A stretch of DNA of 64,000 nt. Origin: Tepidisphaeraceae bacterium (lineage in GTDB: Bacteria; Planctomycetota; Phycisphaerae; Tepidisphaerales; Tepidisphaeraceae). Shown one piece after another: positions 6,866 to 62,739 of the stretch. The DNA is taken from the NCBI GenBank assembly GCA_965247815.1, contig CBDFHW010000025.1:89058-153057 (forward strand). Reading direction: 5' to 3'. The notes beneath the pieces are model-generated. The model made no database searches, was not told the origin of the DNA, and was given only the letters and a program-made list of their open reading frames with translations. The translations under genes and the position numbers were made by a program. Each line of letters begins with the position of its first letter. Position 1 is the first letter of the stretch.

Positions 6866-6953
6866 GGGGGCATCACTCGAACTGGTCGTTAGATTCTAAG
6901 GCTTTGTTCCTGCGGGCTCGCTTTTCGATTTGGAATTCGGGCGTTTTGATCCT

Positions 6954-7079
6954 GTCGGCTGGCGTTTCAACTTCAAATACCGGCATTTCAAACCTCTCGG
7001 CTGGCATTTCAACTTCGAATACTGGCATTCCGATCGGGTCGGCTGGCATTTTGACTTTAAATGCTGGCGTTTCTCCACC
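6954..7079. repeat. 42-bp tandem repeat x3 (each with an internal 21-bp half-repeat)
   Basis: Units at 6954-6995, 6996-7037 and 7038-7079 (gtcggctggcRtttcaacttcRaatacYggcatt...). Spanned by three overlapping ORFs in different frames. Confidence 0.85.
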
Positions 7080-36486: not shown

Positions 36487-36686
36487 TATCCAATCTCCGC
36501 TCGTAAAACCTTCCGAAGCGTTCACCGCCATTGATGCATGCGAGCGTACTGCGAGTCGGCGCCGCGGCGAAGTGCTTCACACAACTTTCACAATCACCCC
36601 TTTTATCGCGGGCGTCGTTCCGTATGATCCGATCTCAGCCGGTGACCAACGACCGGCCAGCAGCTTGCGGTCAATCAGGTGACAAG

Positions 36687-38180
36687 ATGATTCGAACTAA
36701 AATTGTGGCGACGATGGGTCCGGCGTGTGGTGACGTGGAAACGTTGCTGAGACTTTTCGAAGCCGGGGTCGACGTCTGCCGGCTGAATTTCTCACACGGC
36801 ACGCTCGACGGACACCTGCTGACCCTGCGAAACATTCACGAAGCGGCGAGCCGATACCACGAACCCATTGCCGTGCTCGGCGATCTGTGCGGGCCGAAGA
36901 TTCGGCTCGGTTCGATCAAAGACGTCGACGGGCTCGGCGGGATGCCGATCAGCGTCGGCGACACGCTGGTTATTCAGCGTGACCCGACCGTCGGTGAAAA
37001 AGGCCGGGTGTCGTCGATCTATAAAGAATTTGTCGACGAGGTTTGTGTCGGGCAGCGGGTGTTGGTCGAAGACGGGCTGTTGCGATTCGTCTGCACGGAG
37101 AAAAAGCCGAACGAAATTATCTGTAACTGCACCGCCGGCGGGGTGCTGAAAAGCTCCAAGGGGATCAACCTCCCGGACACGGCGATCAATACGCCGTCGA
37201 TGACCGACCGCGACTGGGAATGCGTCGACTGGGCGGTCGACCAGCGGCTCGATTACCTGGCATTGTCGTTTGTCCGCAAGGCGGAAGACCTCACCGAATT
37301 GCGGTCGTATCTGCAGGACAAGGTCAGCGATATTCACTTGATTGCGAAGATCGAAAAGGCCGAGGCGATCGACCAGATCGACGGGATCATCGACGCGAGC
37401 GACGGCCTGATGGTCGCCCGCGGCGACCTTGGTGTGGAACTTGACGTCGCGATGGTGCCGATCATCCAGAAGGATTTGATCCGCCGGTGTCAGGCGGCGG
37501 GCAAGCCGGTCATCGTGGCGACGCAGATGCTGCAGAGCATGATCGAGCAGAGCTCGCCGACCCGCGCCGAGGTCAGCGACGTTGCTAACGCGATCTTCGA
37601 CGGGACTGATGCCGTCATGCTCAGCGGTGAAACCAGCGTCGGGAAGTTCCCGGTGATCACGGTGCACACGATGTCGCACATCGCCGACGTGACCGAAGAA
37701 TATCTGACCCGGGCCGACACGGCCTCGACGCCGCCGCCGATGGTGAAAACGTCGCTGCACGCCGGGGCGCTCGCCCGGGGCGCGCTGCGGATCGTGCAGG
37801 ACCTCAAAGCCAAGCTGGTTATCATCTGGACCCAGACCGGCACCACCGCGCGGGTGTTCAGCAAGCATCACTTCCCGGTGCCGATCATCGCGTTGTCACC
37901 GGACCACCGGACGTTGCGGCGGATGGCGTTGCACTACGGCGTGATCCCGCAGGAAATGGCCGGTGCACCTGACATGACATTGTTGATCGCGAAGGTCGAC
38001 GAGTTCGTGGCCCAGCAGAAATACGCCGAACGGGGCGACCGCATTCTCATCGTCGCCGGATGGTCACCGGGCACCCCGGGCACGATGAACGGCCTGGTCA
38101 TCCACACCGTCGGCGACACCTGGACCCCGGTCCCCACCGCACAAATGATGCGGCAGATGGTGAAGTCTGAACGAGATTGA
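36687..38180 (+). CDS. pyk: Pyruvate kinase
   Basis: MIRTKIVATMGPA... start and the pyruvate kinase signature region (MVARGDLGVE). 497 aa from the ATG at 36687. Confidence 0.9.
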   Translation: MIRTKIVATMGPACGDVETLLRLFEAGVDVCRLNFSHGTLDGHLLTLRNIHEAASRYHEPIAVLGDLCGPKIRLGSIKDVDGLGGMPISVGDTLVIQRDPTVGEKGRVSSIYKEFVDEVCVGQRVLVEDGLLRFVCTEKKPNEIICNCTAGGVLKSSKGINLPDTAINTPSMTDRDWECVDWAVDQRLDYLALSFVRKAEDLTELRSYLQDKVSDIHLIAKIEKAEAIDQIDGIIDASDGLMVARGDLGVELDVAMVPIIQKDLIRRCQAAGKPVIVATQMLQSMIEQSSPTRAEVSDVANAIFDGTDAVMLSGETSVGKFPVITVHTMSHIADVTEEYLTRADTASTPPPMVKTSLHAGALARGALRIVQDLKAKLVIIWTQTGTTARVFSKHHFPVPIIALSPDHRTLRRMALHYGVIPQEMAGAPDMTLLIAKVDEFVAQQKYAERGDRILIVAGWSPGTPGTMNGLVIHTVGDTWTPVPTAQMMRQMVKSERD

Positions 38181-38197: not shown

Positions 38198-38322
38198 AAA
38201 GGATGAATGATGAACGATGAATGATGAACGAAGAAAGACAGGCGGACAATTCATCGTTGGGGTAGACAAGGCTAAGAATTCTTTGTCTTCATTCATCATT
38301 CATCATTCATCATTCATCGTTC
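38198..38322. repeat. Inverted arrays of heptanucleotide tandem repeats (GATGAAY)x4 ... (ATTCATC)x3 with a 17-bp perfect inverted core
   Basis: Left array 38202-38229 and right array 38290-38315. The perfect 17-mer gaacgatgaatgatgaa (38212-38228) matches its reverse complement at 38299-38315. The whole structure lies directly after the pyk stop. Confidence 0.85.
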
Positions 38323-53589: not shown

Positions 53590-56500
53590 TCAATGAAAAT
53601 CGCGCGACCCCACACCGCCGTCCGAAATCAGATGGCTCAGGTCCGTCATCCGCATCACCATCACGTGAACGACCTTGTCCTGTCGTTCGACGTACCCCTC
53701 GGCCTGCACGAGCGTCGAATGTCTCGCGGCCTTTCGGTACCGATCGAACACCACCGGGCGGATGATCAGGTTCGCGATCCCCGATTCGTCTTCCAACGTC
53801 TCGAACACGATGCCGGACGCCGTCCCGGGCCGCTGACGGATCAGCACCAGCCCGGCGACACGGACCCATTTGCCGTGGGTCATGGTTGATAAATCCGCCG
53901 CCGGTGTGACGCGCATCTGCTTTAACTGCTGGCGGATCAACGCGACCGGGTGCCGCTTCAGCGACAGCCCCGCCGTGCGGTAATCGATCGTGACCTCCTG
54001 TGACATCGGCATCGTCGGCAGCGATACCCCGACCTCGGGCGCGGTGTCCTCGGTCAACCAGTCGAACAAAGGCATCGGTTCGCTGTGACATTTCATCACG
54101 TCCCACAACGCCTGCCTGCGGGACAACCCGAGCGAGCCGAAACCGTCGGCCTCGGCCAACGTCCGCAGCGCGTGTGGTGGCAAACCCGTCCGTCGGGCGA
54201 ACTGGTCGACGGACGTAAACGGGCCTCGTGTTCTAACTTCGATAACGCGGTCGGCGTGCGCCCGCCGTAGCCCCCGCACGCGGTTGAAACCGAGCTGCAC
54301 GACCGGCCCGCCGTGCCCCCAGTCCCAGGTGCGGCCGAAATCCGCGACGATCTCCGAATCACCGTGTGAATCATTTTCCGAAGATTCGGCTGTGACCAAA
54401 TCATTCTCGTCCAGTTCATAGCTGTGACCCCGAACACCAAGTGCATGCAGCGTGCATTCCCAACTGCTCTGATTCACGTCGACCGCCAGCACGATCACGC
54501 CGTGCGCCTGCGCGTCGCGGACGATCTGCGCCGGCGCGTAGAACCCCATCGGCTGGCTGTTCAGCAAACCGCAGCAGAAGACCGCCGGGTGGTGCCGTTT
54601 GATCCAGCAGGAGACATAAACCAGCAGCGCGAAACTGGCGGAATGACTTTCGGGGAAGCCGTATTCGCCGAACCCTTTGAGCATGTTGAAACATTGGTCC
54701 GCATATTCCGGCGTGTACCGCTTGGCGAGCATGCCGGCCAGGATCTTCTTGCGGAATTCCTCGACCGCGCCCCCGCGCTTCCACGCCGCCATCGCGCGCC
54801 GGAACCGGTCCGCCTCGTCCCCGGAAAACCCCGCCCCCTTCATCGCGATCTGCATCGCCTGTTCCTGAAACAACGGCACGCCCAGCGTCCGCTTCAGCAC
54901 CTCTTCCAGTTCCGCGCTCGGGTACACGACCGGTTCCAGCCCCCGCCGGCGGCGCAAATACGGGTGCACCATGTCCCCCTGGATCGGGCCCGGGCGCACG
55001 ATCGCGACTTCAATTACAAGGTCGTAAAACGTCCGGGGTCGCAGCCGGGGCAGCATCGTCATCTGCGCCCGCGATTCGATCTGGAACACCCCGACCGTGT
55101 CGGCGTCACAGATCATGTCGTAAACCAACTGGTCTTCCTGCGGGATCGTGTGCATCGCCAGCGGCGGGGTGCTCGGGTAAACCTGGTTGATCATCGTCAC
55201 GCACTTGGCGATGCACGTCAGCATCCCCAGCGCGAGCAGGTCGACTTTGAGAATTTTTAAATCGTCGATGTCCTGCTTGTCCCATTCGATGACGGTGCGG
55301 TCGGCCATCACGGCGTTTTCCACCGGCACCATCTCGCACAGCAGCCCGCTGGTCATGACCATCCCGCCGACGTGTTGACCCAGGTGCCGTGGGAACCCCA
55401 GCAACTGTTCGGACAAGTCGACGATCGTCCGCACCGTGCGGTCGTCGGGGTCGAGCCCGACCTCGGTCAACTTCTCCGGTGTCAGCGTGCCGCGGTCCCA
55501 CCAGTCGAGCCGCTTGGCCATCTGCTCGATCGTGTCCAGGCCGAGCCCCATCACTTTCCCCACGTCGCGCACGGCCGAGCGCCCGCGATACGTAATCACC
55601 TCGGCCGTCATCCCCGCCCGGTCCCGGCCGTATTTTTCGTACACATACTGAATCACTTCTTCGCGGCGTTCGTGCTCGAAATCGACGTCAATGTCCGGCG
55701 GTTCGTTCCGGGCCGCACTGACGAACCGTTCGAACAGGACGTTGATCTGGTCCGGGTTTACCGACGTGACGCCGATGCAATAACAGACCGCGCTATTGGC
55801 GGCCGACCCCCGGCCCTGGCACAAAATGTCGCGCGACCGCGCGAACCGGACGATGTCCTGCACGGTCAAAAAATACGCCTCGATCTGCAACTCGCCGATC
55901 AGTTTCAATTCCCGCTCGATCAGCGTTTTGACTTTCGGCGGAATTCCCTGCGGGTATCGCCCGGCCGCCCCTTCCCAGGCGAGCTCGGTCAGGTATTGCA
56001 GCTGCGTCTTCCCCGGTGAAGTCAGCTCGTGCGGGTATTCGTATTTCAGCTGGTCGAGATTGAATTGACATTGCTCGGCGATATCGAGCCCGCGCTGGAT
56101 GGCTGGCAAATAATCATCGAACAGCACGTGCATCTGCAGCGGCAATTTGAGATACCGTTCGCCATTTTGGAACAATCGGTATCCCGCCTCGTGGATCGTG
56201 CAGCCGTGCCGGACGCACGTCAGCACGTCCTGCAACCGCCGGCGGTCGGGGTGGTGAAAGTGCACGTCATTAGTCGCCAGCATCGGCACGCCGAACGCCC
56301 GGCTCAGCCAGTTAAGGTTCGACAACCGGGTCTGGTTGTCACTTTCATATACACACGACGCCGCGATCGACAACGATTTTCCGAACACGTCTTTCAACTG
56401 CCCCAGGTCCCGGGCGAACGTTTCCGGCACCGGGTCGGGCGGGACCACCGCAACGAGCAGGCCTTTGCCGTGATCGAACAGGTCGTGGATAGATAGATCG

Positions 56501-56883
56501 CATTCACCTTTGATCGTCCGCCGTTTGCCCAGCGTGAGCAGCTGGCACAGTCGCGCGTACGCCGCCCGGTCGGTCGGCCAGACCAATACATCAGGGTGAT
56601 TCGCCAGCACGAGCCGGGCGCCGACCACCAGTTTCAGCCCGACCTCTTTCGCCTTCACGTGCATGCGGACGATGCCGGCTACTGAATTGATATCGGTGAT
56701 GCCGATCGCGCGGTAACCCAGGTGGGCCGCCTGGATCACCAGTTCGTCCGGGTGCGACGCGCCACGCAGGAACGAAAAATTGGTCGTCACCGCCAGCTCG
56801 GCGTACTCGTACGGGCAGGCCCGCACCGTGATGTTCGACGGGGCCGCGGCGTCACGAAGTTTTGGATTAGGATGTTCGGGCAT
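53590..56883 (-). CDS. dnaE2: Error-prone DNA polymerase III alpha-like, DnaE2 (ImuC)
   Basis: 1097 aa. N-terminal PHP domain (AELAVTTNFSFLRGASHPDEL) and Pol III alpha core. Located downstream of imuA-imuB. Confidence 0.9.
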   Translation of the reverse strand: MPEHPNPKLRDAAAPSNITVRACPYEYAELAVTTNFSFLRGASHPDELVIQAAHLGYRAIGITDINSVAGIVRMHVKAKEVGLKLVVGARLVLANHPDVLVWPTDRAAYARLCQLLTLGKRRTIKGECDLSIHDLFDHGKGLLVAVVPPDPVPETFARDLGQLKDVFGKSLSIAASCVYESDNQTRLSNLNWLSRAFGVPMLATNDVHFHHPDRRRLQDVLTCVRHGCTIHEAGYRLFQNGERYLKLPLQMHVLFDDYLPAIQRGLDIAEQCQFNLDQLKYEYPHELTSPGKTQLQYLTELAWEGAAGRYPQGIPPKVKTLIERELKLIGELQIEAYFLTVQDIVRFARSRDILCQGRGSAANSAVCYCIGVTSVNPDQINVLFERFVSAARNEPPDIDVDFEHERREEVIQYVYEKYGRDRAGMTAEVITYRGRSAVRDVGKVMGLGLDTIEQMAKRLDWWDRGTLTPEKLTEVGLDPDDRTVRTIVDLSEQLLGFPRHLGQHVGGMVMTSGLLCEMVPVENAVMADRTVIEWDKQDIDDLKILKVDLLALGMLTCIAKCVTMINQVYPSTPPLAMHTIPQEDQLVYDMICDADTVGVFQIESRAQMTMLPRLRPRTFYDLVIEVAIVRPGPIQGDMVHPYLRRRRGLEPVVYPSAELEEVLKRTLGVPLFQEQAMQIAMKGAGFSGDEADRFRRAMAAWKRGGAVEEFRKKILAGMLAKRYTPEYADQCFNMLKGFGEYGFPESHSASFALLVYVSCWIKRHHPAVFCCGLLNSQPMGFYAPAQIVRDAQAHGVIVLAVDVNQSSWECTLHALGVRGHSYELDENDLVTAESSENDSHGDSEIVADFGRTWDWGHGGPVVQLGFNRVRGLRRAHADRVIEVRTRGPFTSVDQFARRTGLPPHALRTLAEADGFGSLGLSRRQALWDVMKCHSEPMPLFDWLTEDTAPEVGVSLPTMPMSQEVTIDYRTAGLSLKRHPVALIRQQLKQMRVTPAADLSTMTHGKWVRVAGLVLIRQRPGTASGIVFETLEDESGIANLIIRPVVFDRYRKAARHSTLVQAEGYVERQDKVVHVMVMRMTDLSHLISDGGVGSRDFH

Positions 56884-56934: not shown

Positions 56935-58635
56935 TCAACATTTTCCGTGCAGGTACCACTTCCGCGTCTCGTCCACCTGGAACAGCCAGAACCGCTGCCC
57001 CGACTGGTCTTCGACGTCGAAATAGTCCCGCGTTTTATTCCGGCCCTCCCACCACGACCCGGTGATCCGTTCCGGCCCGTTGCGGTGAACCAGGTTGAAC
57101 GCCTCGCCGGCGTGGGTGAACGAAATCGGCAGGTCTTCGCCCAGTTCGTTGGACATCATCGCGCACCCGATTTCGATCGGCTCGGGCAACAGGTGCAGCG
57201 GCCGCGATTTGATCTCCCTGTGGGTTGATTCGACCGGCGTCGGGGGGACCAATTTGAATGCCGGGTTGGACACCGGCAATAGCGAGCTGGTTTGCGCCGT
57301 CGCCTGCCGTGGTTTTTTCTTCTGTACTGCCGGCCGTTTGTGCGTCGCGAAGCTGACCGCCTTTTCCGGCAGATGCGATTCCACCGGGGTCGGGAACGCC
57401 ACCGCCGCTTCCCCGAGCCGCACCCGAAGCCGTTCGATCAGGTAATCGATTTCCCCCTCGGCCAGCTGCGCTTCGCGGTCCAGCAGGTGCAGTTGCTCGA
57501 GCGTCAGCCGTTCGAACACCGGCACCGAAAGCCGAAGACCGGCAAACCCGTCGTTGCCGCATTTCACCGTCTCGGTCGCACACCGCAGCAGGTTCCAAAG
57601 GCCCGTCAGGTCGACGGTGGGGCGCGACAGCTGAATCGTTTTCGTCACCGGCGGCAGACCATTCAGAAGAAACTCGGCCACCAGCGTCCGGGCCCCGCAC
57701 CCCCGCTGATGAAGCTCGTGCAGAACGTCTTTCAGCAGATGTTTGCACGCCTGCCAGAGATCGGTCAGCGAATCGACACCCCCTTCGAATTCCATCCCGG
57801 CAACGACCGGTTGAAAATGCGCGATCGGCAACAACGGTTCGGGCGTCCGCCCCAGCGCCTGGTCCAATCGTTTCAACACCGTCGTGCCGAACCGCGCGGG
57901 CAGCGTTTCGCGGGGCAATCGCACCAGTTGCCCGATGGTTTCAATGCCCAGTGAATGAAAAGTCCGCACGAGATCGTTACCCAACCGCAGAAAAGAAACC
58001 GGCAACGGCGCGAGCGCGGCGGGAAGCTGATCAAGATCGAAAATACGCGCGCCCCGAGATCCCGAAGAACTCTCCGAGCGATGTTGCGCCCGGCTCTTTC
58101 CCGGATCAGAAGGTCGTGACGCCAGCGCCCACGCCGCACCGGGCGTCGGCGCGATCGCGATGCCGTGACGCAGTTTCAACCGGCTGAGCGATTCGGTCGC
58201 CAGCCCCAGCAACCGGTCCATGCCCGAAAAAAGCCGTTCGCTGCCGGTCACGTCCAGGAACAAAGCATCCGGCGGTTCGACCGCAACCACCGGGCTGAAT
58301 CGCACCATCCACCGCGCCAACGCCTGCAGCGCCTGCAGATCTTTATCGGGCCGATGATCCAGATGCGCGAGCCCCGTACACAACGCCCGAGCCTCGGCCA
58401 GCGACATGCCCGGGACCACCCCCGCGGCCGTCGCGTTCGCACAAGCAAACGTCACCAATTGCCGCGCCGCCACCGTCCGAATCAACACCAAGGACGGACC
58501 CGATATCGAACCAACAGACCCCGAGGTCTTCAGACTTCTTTCGGATTTCGGATTTCGGATTTCGGATTTACAACTAGCCTGTCGCTGTTTTCGGTTGACC
58601 CGGTCGATGGGCCATTGGTTCAACCGCACGCACAT
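56935..58635 (-). CDS. imuB: ImuB, Y-family polymerase-like mutasome component
   Basis: ImuB-type N-terminus (MCVRLNQWPIDRV ... VPGMSLAEARALC). Sits between imuA and dnaE2. The start overlaps the imuA 3' end. Confidence 0.75.
   Translation of the reverse strand: MCVRLNQWPIDRVNRKQRQASCKSEIRNPKSERSLKTSGSVGSISGPSLVLIRTVAARQLVTFACANATAAGVVPGMSLAEARALCTGLAHLDHRPDKDLQALQALARWMVRFSPVVAVEPPDALFLDVTGSERLFSGMDRLLGLATESLSRLKLRHGIAIAPTPGAAWALASRPSDPGKSRAQHRSESSSGSRGARIFDLDQLPAALAPLPVSFLRLGNDLVRTFHSLGIETIGQLVRLPRETLPARFGTTVLKRLDQALGRTPEPLLPIAHFQPVVAGMEFEGGVDSLTDLWQACKHLLKDVLHELHQRGCGARTLVAEFLLNGLPPVTKTIQLSRPTVDLTGLWNLLRCATETVKCGNDGFAGLRLSVPVFERLTLEQLHLLDREAQLAEGEIDYLIERLRVRLGEAAVAFPTPVESHLPEKAVSFATHKRPAVQKKKPRQATAQTSSLLPVSNPAFKLVPPTPVESTHREIKSRPLHLLPEPIEIGCAMMSNELGEDLPISFTHAGEAFNLVHRNGPERITGSWWEGRNKTRDYFDVEDQSGQRFWLFQVDETRKWYLHGKC
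58541..58568. repeat. Heptanucleotide microsatellite (TCGGATT)x4 in the imuA/imuB junction
   Basis: Four perfect tandem copies at 58541-58568, 5 nt from the imuA stop (58574-58576) and inside the 5' coding region of imuB (encodes KSEIRNPKSE). Confidence 0.9.
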
Positions 58636-59314
58636 GATTTGTCTCACGGCAGACCTCCAGAAGAACGTTTTTCCCCACACGTCCTCCGTGACCGTGAATC
58701 AATTCCACCGACACCCGCTGGAGCATCCGCTCCCCGCGGGCCGGGGTTACTTTCCATCGCGTGGCGGCGGCGTAGGGCCACGCGACGGCCTCCGCCGGGC
58801 GCAGCAACACACCGATCCCGCCCCCGCGCTCGGCCGCCAACTGCAACCGCCTCGCCTGCACCCGCGTCAACCGGCCCGCCGGGGTAATGCACGCGGCCAC
58901 GCCCCGGCACCGAAGACACTCGGTCACCGCCCAGAGCCCTTCCGCCATCGTCGCCGGCCGCAACACCAGCAGGCGTTCCATCGGGATGCCCAGCGCCAAT
59001 AACGCCGGCGGATACAGGTCCCGGTCGAAATCGCACCAGACGATCATGCCAACCCGCGACTCCGACTGAATCGCCGATCGCGCCAGCAAGGCAGGCAACA
59101 AGAACGGCATCCGCGCCGCCTGCGATTTCACACCGCCTACGCCGTTGAGCACCTCGTGCACGGCCCCGCGGACGAACGCCCCCTCGGGCAACATCTCGTC
59201 CAAAGCCGACAACCCGGTAACCAGCTTCCGCGACCCGCCACCCGCGCGACCGGGCAAATGCCCGAGCCCGGGCAGCGTCCGCAACAACCCACCGACAGAC
59301 GTAATGACATGCAC
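58574..59314 (-). CDS. imuA: ImuA (SulA/RecA-like) mutasome component
   Basis: RecA-fold-like P-loop region. First gene of the imuA-imuB-dnaE2 cassette. GTG start at 59314. Confidence 0.7.
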   Translation of the reverse strand: MHVITSVGGLLRTLPGLGHLPGRAGGGSRKLVTGLSALDEMLPEGAFVRGAVHEVLNGVGGVKSQAARMPFLLPALLARSAIQSESRVGMIVWCDFDRDLYPPALLALGIPMERLLVLRPATMAEGLWAVTECLRCRGVAACITPAGRLTRVQARRLQLAAERGGGIGVLLRPAEAVAWPYAAATRWKVTPARGERMLQRVSVELIHGHGGRVGKNVLLEVCRETNHVRAVEPMAHRPGQPKTATG

Positions 59315-59683
59315 GCACCTTCCCTTGTTTGTACTTTGTTAGGGTACCTGACAAGGCCGCGTCCGGTCAATCCTGTTTTAATTTGGCGACAGGAAGGGAC
59401 GTCCTGACTTTAATGGACCCGTTGGCGGGATAACGATCTATTGGAACCTCTGCACTGCGGCCGAGGTGAAAAATTGTACTCGACCCCAAAACCCACGCGG
59501 TTGCTAAACACACCCACAAAAGGTTGTGGTTTTATGAATTGGGTTATTATCAGCGAATTAGTTACTGGGAGGGAGCGGATAAAGGGTCGAGCGGATAAAG
59601 GGTCGGGAGTCGTTGATTAGACTCCCGACCCTTTAGAATTTCCCGGCGAAGATCAGTCGCGGTCCTCTACCAAAGGAGATTGC

Positions 59684-60768
59684 ATGAGCTATCAGACAAT
59701 TGTGGCTATCGATCTGGGCAAGTTCAAGTCTGTTTTGTGCGTGATGGACGTCGCCACCCGGACGCATCGGTTTACCACCATCGAGTCTTCGCCGACCGCG
59801 ATCCGCGATGCGATTGCTCAGCAGGTCTCGACCGATCCGGCTTTGACCCTGGTGGTCTTTGAGACCTGCGACACCTGCGGCTGGGTGCATGATCAACTCG
59901 CGCCCCTGGGCGTGAAGATCACCATCGTCAACGCCAACGATGAACGCTGGCGCTGGCAGCGGGTGAAGCGAAAGACCGATCAGGATGATGCACTGAAAAT
60001 GGCCAGGCTGGCGCTATTGGATCAATTGCCCACGGTACATCTGCCCGATCCACAGCAGCGGCAGAGACGGCGGTTGATGATTCACCGGCGATCAATCGTG
60101 AGCCGGCGAACGCAGTGCCGCAACGCCATTCGCTCCATTTTCAGCCATCCTTCGACTTCGCTCAGGAGGGTATCGCGCTGGCCAGAGGACAAAAGCAGTG
60201 GACACGCGCCGGCCTAGAGCAACTGCAAAGCCATGCCGCCCCGATCGAGAACTGCGACGTGGACGATCTGTGGAAGGGAAGGCTCAACAGCGAACTGCTG
60301 CTGATGGCGTCGATCAACCAGCAGCTCAAAGCGCTCGATGCCAAGCTGGACGAACTGGCCGACCCGCGCATGAAACTATTGCAGAGCCTGAAGGGCGTTG
60401 GCCCGCGCACCGCAGAGACAGTGGTGCTGTACATCGATGATCCCAAACGATTCAAAACCGGCGAAGAACTGGCCAGCTACGCCGGTCTGGTGCCCAAGCA
60501 ACTGCAAAGCGGTGAAATGAACCGCATGGGCCACATCACCCATCGCGGGCCGGGTCTCTTGCGTGCGATGCTGGTCGAGTCGGCCTGGACAATCTATCGC
60601 CACAACCCCTGGGCACAGGCGTTTGTGAACAAGATCAGCCACGGATCAAAGGCCAGGCGAAAGCTGGCGATCGTCGCGCTGGCCAAAAAGGTGCTGATCA
60701 TTTTGTGGGGCATGCTCAAGAGCAATACGCCGTTCCGACAACCGTCGTCTGTCGCGCTGGTGAGTTGA
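59684..60768 (+). mobile_element. IS110-family transposase gene, disrupted by a frameshift (frames 59684..60217 and 60115..60768)
   Basis: N-terminal DEDD/RuvC-like part (IVAIDLGKFKS ... VFETCDTCGW) in one frame. C-terminal part (GVGPRTAETVVLYIDDPKRF ... YAGLVPKQLQSGE) in another. The shift is near a TTTT run around 60140-60150. Confidence 0.8.
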
Positions 60769-61135
60769 GAGAGAGGAACTGAAAAACAAGCCAGACCTGT
60801 TGCTTTGAAGAAGGATGTTGTGCGACACGCCGGTGACCTTGGCTAACCAGCTGCATGCCGTTGACATGTGGAGCATCGAATAAGGCCCAGTGTTTGTTTT
60901 GGGTGAATGAGGCTCTCGTAAAAAAACCAAACGGCAACGAGATGACCATCGAATAGTCGGCTGAAGCGCACGGCTCTTTGCATCAGCAGCAGATTTGCTT
61001 CGCGACCGGGGCTCCGCCCCAGGCCCCGCCTCCTAAACCTCTTCCGCCTGCGTGGGCCGAATGAGAAAATCGAGCGATCAGACATTCCGCGCAAAAGATT
61101 GTGCTTGACGGCGAAAGGGATTCATAGTTGGCTGG

Positions 61136-61417
61136 TTATCCGGCACTTCCGGGTAGCGAAGCAAAGAAAGTTCGAAAGTGCATCAAGACCTTGGCCACAT
61201 CTTCTTCGCCAATGAACTCCTCCTCGCCAACGAACATGTGCGCGGTCACCAATCGGTAGCATAGGTGACGCGCTTCCTCGATCCGCTGGTAAGGCAACGC
61301 TTCGAGCGCCTCCATGTGGAATGAGATTGAGCGTTCCACGTCATCCGGCCGAATGCGGCCAGCCTCATAGTCGTCGAGGATAGCACCCATTCGAACAATG
61401 ATGTCGCGGTTCGCCAT
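61136..61417 (-). CDS. Small hypothetical protein, possibly truncated by the IS3 insertion
   Basis: The long ORF frame runs to 61549, across the IS3 left end. The first ATG is at 61417. Confidence 0.3.
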   Translation of the reverse strand: MANRDIIVRMGAILDDYEAGRIRPDDVERSISFHMEALEALPYQRIEEARHLCYRLVTAHMFVGEEEFIGEEDVAKVLMHFRTFFASLPGSAG

Positions 61418-61600
61418 GTGCCGGATAACTACTATTCTGCTGCGCACCGCCATAAAAGCCGCGTTTGGCGGTGATCGGTGCTCGTTCCCTAAACTACTTT
61501 CACAGCAACCGGGGGGAAGATTAAGGGGACGTAGTTTGGGCTTCCCCACTAAGCACGGGCGCGGCAGAGGGCAGAGTAGAATCTGTCTGAAGGAGTGTCC

Positions 61601-61882
61601 ATGGCACGAAGAAAGTACACGCGGGAGTTCAAGATTTCAGCAGTCAAGCTGGTCAATCAACAGGGGTATTCAGTGGTTGACGCGGCCAAGAGCCTGGGCG
61701 TCGATCCCAACAGCGTTCGGGGGTGGGTCGGCAAGTTTGGAGCCGAGGCCGGCTTGGCGCCGACTGGCGACGGAGCGATGGCGGCAGAGCTGCGGCGGCT
61801 GCGCAAGGAGAACGCCCGGCTTTTGATGGAGCGCGAGATTTTAAAAAAAGCAGCTCAGTTCTTCGCAAAGGAGCAGCTGTGA
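61601..61882 (+). CDS. IS3 OrfA (helix-turn-helix transposase N-terminal part)
   Basis: MARRKYTREFKISAVKLV... ending at the AAAAAAAG slippery run (61844-61851), where a -1 frameshift would fuse it to orfB. Confidence 0.85.
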   Translation: MARRKYTREFKISAVKLVNQQGYSVVDAAKSLGVDPNSVRGWVGKFGAEAGLAPTGDGAMAAELRRLRKENARLLMEREILKKAAQFFAKEQL

Positions 61883-62739
61883 AGTTTGCCTTCATCGAAG
61901 AACACCTCCGTGACTTTCCGGTTGAGGTTTCGTGCCAGGTGCTGGATGTCAGCCGCTCGGGTTACTACGACTGGATCAACCGGCCTGCGAGCGAGCGGTA
62001 CAAACGCCGGGAGGAACTGACGGCCAAGGTCAGAACCGCCGCCGTGGAAGGGCGCGGCGTCTACGGCAGCCCGCGGATCTATAAAGCCCTGGTGGCCCGG
62101 GGCGAAAGCGTGTGTGAAAACACGGTGGCAAAAGTGATGAAAGCGGCCGGAATCCGGGCGAAACAAAAGAAAAAATTCGTGCCGACCACCACCGACAGCG
62201 ACCACCCCAACCCGGTGGCCGGCAACGTGCTGGACCGGCAGTTCGCCGCCGAACTCCCGAACCAGAAATGGGCGGTGGACATCACTTACATTCCGACCGA
62301 CCAGGGATGGATGTACCTGGCGGGGGTGATTGATTTGTGCAGCCGGATGATCGTCGGCTGGTCGATGGCGGATCACATGCAAACCGATCTGGTGAGTGAT
62401 GCGCTGCAGATGGCGATCGCGCGAAGAAGCCCCGAGAAAGGCCTGCTGCACCACAGCGACCGCGGCGTTCAATACGCGAGTGATAATTACCAGCAGCTGC
62501 TGGAATCGCATGAAATGAACCAGAGCATGAGCGGCAAGGGAGACTGCTGGGACAACGCCGTAATGGAAAGCTTCTGGTCCACGCTCAAGACCGAGTTGGT
62601 GCATCACCAGAAGTTCGCCACACATGACCAGGCCCGGGCGTCGATCTTTGAGTACATCGAGGTGTTTTATAATCGCAGACGTCTGCACAGTTCGTTAGGC
62701 TATGTCAGCCCCGAGATGTTCGAGGCAAGCCTGAATTAG
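61879..62739 (+). CDS. IS3 OrfB (DDE integrase-core / rve domain)
   Basis: -1 frame relative to orfA. DDE motifs (WAVDITYI ... HHSDRGVQY ... ESFWSTLKTE). The frame is open from 61723. Confidence 0.85.
   Translation: MKFAFIEEHLRDFPVEVSCQVLDVSRSGYYDWINRPASERYKRREELTAKVRTAAVEGRGVYGSPRIYKALVARGESVCENTVAKVMKAAGIRAKQKKKFVPTTTDSDHPNPVAGNVLDRQFAAELPNQKWAVDITYIPTDQGWMYLAGVIDLCSRMIVGWSMADHMQTDLVSDALQMAIARRSPEKGLLHHSDRGVQYASDNYQQLLESHEMNQSMSGKGDCWDNAVMESFWSTLKTELVHHQKFATHDQARASIFEYIEVFYNRRRLHSSLGYVSPEMFEASLN

Follow-up and report, generated by a model that had tools for sequence, protein, structure and literature searches.

Does a perfect run of 7-nt repeats near the 5′ end of a mutagenesis gene make that gene switchable, or is the run what remains of a repeat element that the encoded protein tolerates? 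This question is raised by the imuA-imuB-dnaE2 cassette carried on a 64,000-nt stretch of DNA from a Tepidisphaeraceae bacterium (GenBank assembly GCA_965247815.1, contig CBDFHW010000025.1, positions 89,058 to 153,057), the whole of which we call the window. In this cassette a heptanucleotide tract lies just behind the imuA stop codon and within imuB, and a preliminary description of the DNA had proposed it as a phase-variation switch for error-prone repair. Our analysis led to a different answer: the tract is probably the translated relic arm of a dispersed heptamer-array element, lodged in a tolerant loop of ImuB and kept in frame by selection.

Tandem Repeats Finder (TRF) reported the tract as a period-7 tandem repeat at 58539-58569 (31 nt, 4.4 copies, 100% matches, score 62), and its 24 consecutive period-7 matches have a chance expectation of 6e-10 per 64 kb at the composition of the window. 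The coding (minus) strand reads (AAATCCG)x4.4, the plus strand TTTCGGA/TCGGATT, and translation in the imuB frame gives the peptide KSEIRNPKSE. On re-reading the sequence, the four TCGGATT units that had been placed at 58541-58568 proved exact. Their distance of 5 nt from the imuA stop was also right, since the TAG occupies 58576-58574, 5 nt from that end of the tract and 4 nt from the end given by TRF. As in contingency loci, the repeat is perfect, lies inside an open reading frame and is built of units whose length is not divisible by 3.

Both candidate starts of imuB (56935..58647, minus strand) lie upstream of the repeat, which places the tract inside the N-terminal coding region, as the preliminary description had it. 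The start assumed there, the ATG at 58635, is indeed the annotated one, but the GTG at 58647, four codons further upstream, is the likelier of the two. This GTG is conserved as a start in all relatives, while the ATG codon of the window is replaced by CTG, TTG or CTT in several of them. In addition, the GTG is preceded at a distance of 6 nt by a Shine-Dalgarno GGAGG (58654..58658, minus strand), which falls within the 3′ end of imuA, and GGAG(G) occurs at the same position in seven of the related loci introduced below (L081, L087, L088, L089, L091, L093 and L094). Since the GTG and the GGAG(G) are conserved and the ATG codon is not, imuB probably starts at GTG 58647. The conserved ImuB N-terminus that had been recognised upstream of the repeat is borne out, as its motif, the Shine-Dalgarno sequence and the start are all kept in relatives. 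Together with the constant frame, these features rule out initiation downstream of the repeat. imuA (58574..59314, minus strand, 246 aa; NCBIfam ImuA_translesion, 87.5 bits, below the curated cutoff) and imuB overlap in different frames, by 62-74 nt in the window and 60-74 nt across the clade, and throughout the clade the imuA frame ends just where the conserved ImuB N-terminus ends.

We compared this junction in 12 lineages: the window; L081, L084, L087, L088, L089, L091, L093 and L094, whose loci were fetched via exact-protein look-ups; and the more distant Planctomycetota loci L002, L003 and L007, which, like the background loci used below, were among the matches listed in a contig scan with a 30-sequence ImuB alignment. 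The matches listed in that scan were distant (≤43% identity) and mostly from Alphaproteobacteria. The exact junction of the window with 2-6 units, searched as a DNA pattern, had no match in metagenome contigs, a scan of such contigs with an alignment of the ImuB N-terminus listed one locus only, which was already in the lineage set, and these searches brought up no second genome of the species. In 12 of 12 lineages the conserved motifs V-K-Q-I-[LM]-C-V-R-L-x-x-W-P-I-D-R and P-L-V-L-V-R-T-V-A-S-R-Q stand in the same frame, at a spacing of 141 nt in the window and of 189, 195, 285, about 286, 291, 333, 333, 333 and 384 nt elsewhere. Between them runs a variable linker, which in the window holds the array and comprises 36 aa (58492..58599, minus strand), from WPIDR (where strand 1 passes into helix A) to LVLIRTVAARQ (strand 2). 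Its length is a multiple of 3 and its frame free of stops in every one of the 12, and the other two frames contain stops in all eight lineages that were translated in three frames.

The suggestion that the repeat-encoded segment is an insertion was confirmed by this comparison: among 43 homologues with both motifs the linker measures 11-12 aa in 13, against 36 in the window and 144 at most, and the long linkers contain many different palindrome-type inserts. The alternative that orthologues encode the same peptide without nucleotide repetition did not apply, as the orthologues carry degenerate nucleotide repeats. Linker content is wholly different in L088, L093, L003 and L007. Specifically, the linker of L093 (2700-2960) holds three tandem units of about 57 nt made of CCACTACC-type short repeats, again in frame, which face a complementary GGGGTAGTGG segment; since such units occupy the same place, the ImuB loop appears to accept quite different repeat elements.

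The orthologous copies show what the complete element looks like. AAATCCG-type arrays that begin 1-40 nt past the imuA stop are carried by the window, L081, L084, L087, L089, L091, L094 and L002, a set that includes a Tepidisphaerales metagenome-assembled genome with an ImuB of only 40% identity. In L081, L087, L089, L091 and L094 the array and a spacer are followed by an inverted CGGATTT arm, and the paired arrays at the imuB linker are often bracketed by a GGGTCGCTTCAGCGACCCC mini-palindrome. The folded linkers of L081, L087, L089 and L091 have minimum free energy (MFE) z-scores of -7.6 to -15.6, and at the same place L088 carries an equally strong palindrome of unrelated sequence. The window, L084 and L002 have the left arm only and no significant structure: within reach of the window's tract no inverted partner arm was found, and its linker RNA folds with z = +0.27, or z = +0.19 with a dinucleotide-shuffle control. 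A hairpin or terminator at the window's tract was rejected on the latter value. A known RNA family at the imuA/imuB junction was likewise rejected, the sole Rfam match being a below-threshold miRNA hit to low-complexity repeat.

Elements of this kind also occur outside imuB. Counts of paired inverted heptamer arrays, which use many different units, came to 12 for 123 kb of close-clade DNA including the window, 9 for 339 kb of loci from other Planctomycetota and none for 1.06 Mb of the non-Planctomycetota imuB loci listed (mostly alphaproteobacterial); counted singly, period-7 arrays number 37 in the 123 kb. The window itself has arrays at two loci, 38202-38322 and 58539-58569. The former is a complete intergenic array hairpin, 22 nt past the stop of a pyruvate kinase gene (36531-38180), in which about 60 nt separate (GATGAAT)x3.9 from (TCATTCA)x4.9; its RNA has an MFE of -63.8 kcal/mol (z = -7.8), and it may be a terminator-like element or one resembling repetitive extragenic palindromes (REP-like). 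On an unrelated metagenome contig (L095, 2549-2770) some ten perfect AAATCCG units stand between lpxD and lpxI, parted by a spacer from an inverted CGGATTT-type arm. A query of six KSEIRNP heptads retrieved 21 tiny ‘hypothetical proteins’ composed of these heptads, which are spurious open reading frames over AAATCCG arrays; the copy between lpxD and lpxI underlies one of the 21. Intergenic copies therefore exist, although the window's tract and most copies of the close clade lie inside imuB. A paired array, (AACGTCC)x4.9 / (GACGTTG)x4.9, is also present inside dnaE2 of L089 (6453-6573). The lengths of DnaE2 homologues, which span 1035 to 1422 aa, suggest in-frame repeat inserts for dnaE2 too.

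Within the cassette the arrays are concentrated in particular parts of ImuB. Across seven close lineages period-7 arrays make up 10.0% of imuB bases versus 0.32% of the flanks, a 31-fold difference, and 31 of the 31 arrays in the imuB genes of relatives map to window ImuB residues 23-53, 176-212 and 428-465 (GTG numbering; subtracting 4 gives the ATG numbering of the AlphaFold2 model). The model has an ordered core and a mean predicted local distance difference test score of 82.9. Its N-terminus comprises strand 1 (residues 2-5), helix A (8-26), a low-confidence coil (27-48) and strand 2 (49-55), and the stretches of low confidence, at about residues 27-48, 181-200 and 434-478, overlap all three array regions. 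The repeat residues themselves (23-32, ATG numbering) are modelled as the last part of helix A and the first part of a floppy loop.

L081, L084, L087, L089 and L091 have further paired in-frame arrays at two more sites of imuB, again in low-confidence loops, and imuB of L081 and L089 contains perfect heptamer arrays of 4.7 and 5.1 copies. At the second site the units differ by lineage (GTTCAAC/CGTTGAA, CGAACGT/GTTCGAC, AACATCC/TTCGATG and AACGTCC/TTGGACG) and the arms stay complementary, a pattern that indicates either concerted evolution or selection for pairing. In imuB of the window, the orphan left arm at the first site is all that is left of these arrays.

Taken together, we propose the following history, in which the tract would be the surviving left arm of a type of heptamer-array palindromic element dispersed in Planctomycetota genomes. 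A copy of the element would have sat in the loop between helix A and strand 2 of ImuB since before the clade diverged, and the remaining arm, transcribed and translated within ImuB, would supply the KSEIRNPKSE of a disordered surface loop. It could persist there because the AAATCCG unit is stop-free in all frames on both strands and the loop would tolerate any length that keeps the frame. Replication slippage would make and homogenise the arrays, probably joined in full copies by exchange between the hairpin arms, and since the tract is perfectly homogeneous some of this slippage was presumably fairly recent. Length changes that break the frame would be removed by selection, making the tract a mutational liability, probably devoid of a function of its own, and not a dedicated switch. 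Slippage at a low rate, and with it an occasional reversible inactivation of imuB, may still take place at the tract.

Several observations weigh against this explanation. The tract of the window matches its unit at 100% over 31 nt versus 59-94% in the orthologous arrays, which would make slippage recent in this very lineage, and for a degenerate array to become homogeneous and still be in frame, either a 21-nt step or out-of-frame intermediates are required. Tolerance of the loop may not account in full for the 31-fold concentration in imuB. Moreover, that lineages with ImuB proteins only 54-60% identical keep the same unit at the same site points to homogenisation, or to selection at the level of the DNA or RNA itself, and the exact-protein look-ups that supplied most of the lineages are biased towards unchanged alleles.

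Foremost among the rivals is the switch. It would have slipped-strand mispairing toggle ImuB, and via polarity possibly DnaE2, with the gene ON at 1, 4 or 7 units, giving subpopulations with and without damage-induced mutagenesis; if true, this would be the first bacterium with error-prone repair under stochastic on/off control. The arithmetic on which the proposal was founded is sound: one unit more or fewer frameshifts imuB, and in silico every out-of-phase case is truncated, the computed product being full length at 1, 4 and 7 units, 36 or 43 aa long when there are 3 or 6 units and about 100 aa long when there are 2 or 5 (36-103 aa overall for one-unit changes). The perfect tract, its unit length and its 5′ coding position also speak for it, as do the neuO gene, which sets a precedent for a heptanucleotide repeat in a 5′ coding region (PMC13001214), the perfect arrays in imuB of L081 and L089, and the 31-fold enrichment in this gene.

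We nevertheless consider the switch unlikely. If the unit number ran freely about one-third of lineages would be in frame, and neuO is ON in 34% of genomes, whereas OFF alleles of imuB were not encountered: all 12 linkers are in frame and open, for which the chance under random phase is about (1/3)^12. At 4.4 units the tract is short of the 8-53 units of most documented switches, whose ranges are 3-53 (mostly about 20) or 8-38, and of the length associated with high slippage. Between L084 and L090, two strains that are 99.34% identical over 7.7 kb and differ by 12 single-nucleotide polymorphisms (SNPs) in imuB, none of the four imuB arrays contains an indel. Identical imuB alleles were found on 6, 3 and 6 independent contigs, in a look-up biased towards unchanged proteins. 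The element is, furthermore, a generic dispersed repeat that occurs in intergenic DNA as well, and no description of imuB phase variation was found in the literature searched, the coverage of which was incomplete. A related reading, that imuB of this clade has been recruited as a slippage-sensitive gene and forms a contingency locus for mutability with a reversibly inactivatable mutasome, would explain the dominance of ON alleles in consensus assemblies because OFF cells are a minority, and is in our judgement improbable.

The strong hairpins bring up another possibility, also improbable in our view, namely that the junction works in cis as RNA or DNA, slowing ribosomes into imuB, setting the ImuA:ImuB ratio, offering an RNase target or binding a protein. 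They stand at exactly this place in L081, L087, L088, L089 and L091 (that of L088 being of unrelated sequence), the second-site arms are complementary despite their lineage-specific units, and the array always starts just past the imuA stop. Yet that position is simply where the conserved ImuB N-terminus ceases to impose its constraint, intergenic DNA of unrelated context carries such elements too, and the window, L084 and L002 do without significant structure, the window having neither a partner arm nor an Rfam match. Very improbable is a functional role of the peptide, in which KSEIRNP heptads would serve as a charged spacer or interaction motif, much as the heptads of NeuO raise its activity. 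All lineages translate the segment, charged peptides of a similar kind are encoded there repeatedly, and NeuO sets the precedent of a repeat length that affects activity; however, a 7-nt array runs through all three frames, so that likeness between the peptides follows from likeness between the nucleotides, the linker is wholly different in four lineages, 13 of the 43 homologues have no insert and the segment is of low confidence in the model. Hardly credible, finally, is an artefact of assembly or sequencing by which the true unit number would differ from that assembled. Short tandem repeats can be miscounted and the source is present only once in the databases searched, but 31 nt is far below read length, the assembled number leaves a 570-aa open reading frame unbroken and the site holds arrays in orthologues as well. 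The relic arm in a tolerant loop thus remains the explanation that we favour.

Some ImuB entries in the databases could be mistaken for switched alleles. P0004-P0007, P0010, P0012 and P0123 begin after the linker, and the first six were rejected as OFF alleles since the DNA is in frame and open in each and the start is a gene-calling choice; the entries are short because gene callers avoid the overlap with imuA. P0122, P0123 and P0121 (611, 563 and 513 aa) had been suspected of being repeat-number variants, which was not borne out. The contig of P0123 (L090), the one fetched for these three, has the arrays of L084 with one SNP and no indel, and its shorter product reflects a different start call; P0121 is on the contig of P0003 and begins at an internal Met; and P0122 reads through the linker with no change in length and one substitution.

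The three genes of the cassette all lie on the minus strand in the order imuA-imuB-dnaE2, which relatives share. dnaE2 (imuC; 53590..56883, minus strand) encodes the error-prone DNA polymerase (NCBIfam PRK05672, 1397.6 bits), the closest homologues of which are 73-76% identical and come from metagenomic sequence. ImuB matches the Pfam family IMS (PF00817) with 45.4 bits versus a cutoff of 23.2 (residues 50-170, profile positions 23-145) and has 1455 homologues, many of them named ImuB. A 566-aa NCBI/ENA protein (P0001), beginning MCVRLNQWPIDR, is identical to the product from ATG 58635, and the next-best homologues are 54-59% identical. Judged by the names that homologues bear, Tepidisphaeraceae, Fontivita, Humisphaera and Phycisphaerales (Planctomycetota, class Phycisphaerae) come closest among the named matches listed, with identities of about 40-43% for ImuB and about 60% for DnaE2.

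Active Y-family polymerases have a D-x-D motif in strand 1 and the motif S-I-D-E-A-F-L-D. Read from the sequence, ImuB has C-V-R-L-N-Q-W in strand 1 and PPDALFLDVTG in place of the other motif; the catalytic acidic residues appear to be replaced, and the protein is predicted to be a catalytically dead homologue of these enzymes. At about residues 380-385 it carries E-Q-L-H-L-L, in which, across 30 homologues, Q381 is invariant and L384 at least 90% conserved, and which fits the QLxLx type, a candidate for the β-clamp-binding motif expected after the little-finger domain. Upstream of imuA lies a conserved promoter-like block (59331..59370, minus strand) consisting of TTGACC, about 17 nt and GGTACCCTAACAAAGTAC, which in an alignment of seven lineages becomes TTGAC(C/G), about 17 nt and GGTA(A/C)CCTAACAAAGTAC(G/A)AAC. 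A scan with the sigma-70 consensus gave no match. A candidate operator for damage regulation could lie inside the block; to our knowledge no LexA motif has been established for Planctomycetota.

The region just upstream of the cassette (59573-62739) contains two insertion sequences. The first, an IS110-family transposase in two overlapping open reading frames (59684-60217, DEDD_Tnp_IS110; 60115-60768, Transposase_20), is probably frameshifted, and the second consists of an IS3-family orfA/orfB pair (61595-61882 and 61723-62739). The same region has a perfect 16-nt direct repeat, GAGCGGATAAAGGGTC x2.1, at 59573-59605. At 6951-7073 there is a further tandem repeat, with 2.9 copies of a 42-nt unit at 79% identity and the recurring motif GGCTGGCATTTCAACTTCAAATAC.

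If our favoured explanation is right, Planctomycetota harbour a seemingly undescribed dispersed family of heptamer-array hairpins, which in this clade is strikingly concentrated in the disordered loops of ImuB; we found no description of heptamer-array elements from this phylum in the literature searched, which was incompletely covered. For annotation, gene callers routinely shorten the imuB genes of this clade although the frame is open, the probable true start overlapping imuA by 60-74 nt, and KSEIRNP or FGFRISD in predicted proteins should be read as repeat-derived peptides.

How does the locus compare with known systems? The cassette resembles the ImuA-ImuB-DnaE2 (ImuC) mutasome in its gene order, in a Y-family fold with replaced acidic residues and in the error-prone DnaE2, and differs in the 60-74 nt overlap of imuA and imuB and in the repeat-derived inserts in ImuB loops. 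Among phase-variable genes the closest is neuO of Escherichia coli K1, on the CUS-3 prophage, in which (AAGACTC)n in the 5′ coding region causes translational phase variation (PMC13001214). There too stop-free 7-nt units at the 5′ end of an open reading frame set the frame by their number and are translated into heptad peptides. However, neuO is variable and mostly OFF: its unit number runs from 3 to 53, with 20 the most frequent, 65.6% of genomes have it OFF, and within a culture 93% have 21, 1.9% have 20 and 5.4% have 22 units (PMC13001214). The imuB tract, in contrast, has 4.4 units, no documented variation and the frame kept in all 12 lineages. In Haemophilus influenzae heptanucleotide simple sequence repeats (SSRs) of 8-38 units vary between strains, lie mostly in promoters and are linked to surface-protein genes (PMC2651432); the hmw1A/hmw2A promoter tracts and the AACAACC tracts of TonB-dependent receptor genes share with the imuB tract a 7-nt unit whose copy number can alter expression.

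Palindromic inserts offer another parallel. Rickettsia palindromic elements (RPEs) lie in frame in unrelated protein genes and are translated at fold-compatible positions (PMC10969869), and here as well palindromic repeat elements are kept in frame and add peptide to the protein, in places that its fold allows and with all 12 linkers open. RPEs are about 150 bp long with a family-specific conserved sequence and are not heptamer arrays, and the window's copy has no palindromic partner, whereas the orthologous copies in L081, L087, L089 and L091 are palindromes. Finally, heptameric SSRs are over-represented in bacteria, where they form dispersed families, sometimes as inverted pairs, in Nostoc/Calothrix and Xanthomonas; it has been proposed that 7 nt is the segment of DNA held in the polymerase active site, which would favour slippage (PMC4692102). 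Like the cyanobacterial STRR, the Xanthomonas GGGAATC and the Nostoc GGGGA(T/C)T repeats, whose length and sequence change from one close relative to the next (PMC4692102), the arrays described here are tandem heptamers at many loci with inverted pairs capable of forming stem-loops. Those repeats, though, are described as intergenic, often G-rich and of G-quadruplex potential, while the Planctomycetota arrays use many units, are usually built as array, spacer and inverted array, and in this clade lie in frame inside genes, above all imuB. The Planctomycetota arrays seem to be one more family of dispersed heptameric repeats, whose stop-free units can persist in frame inside genes.

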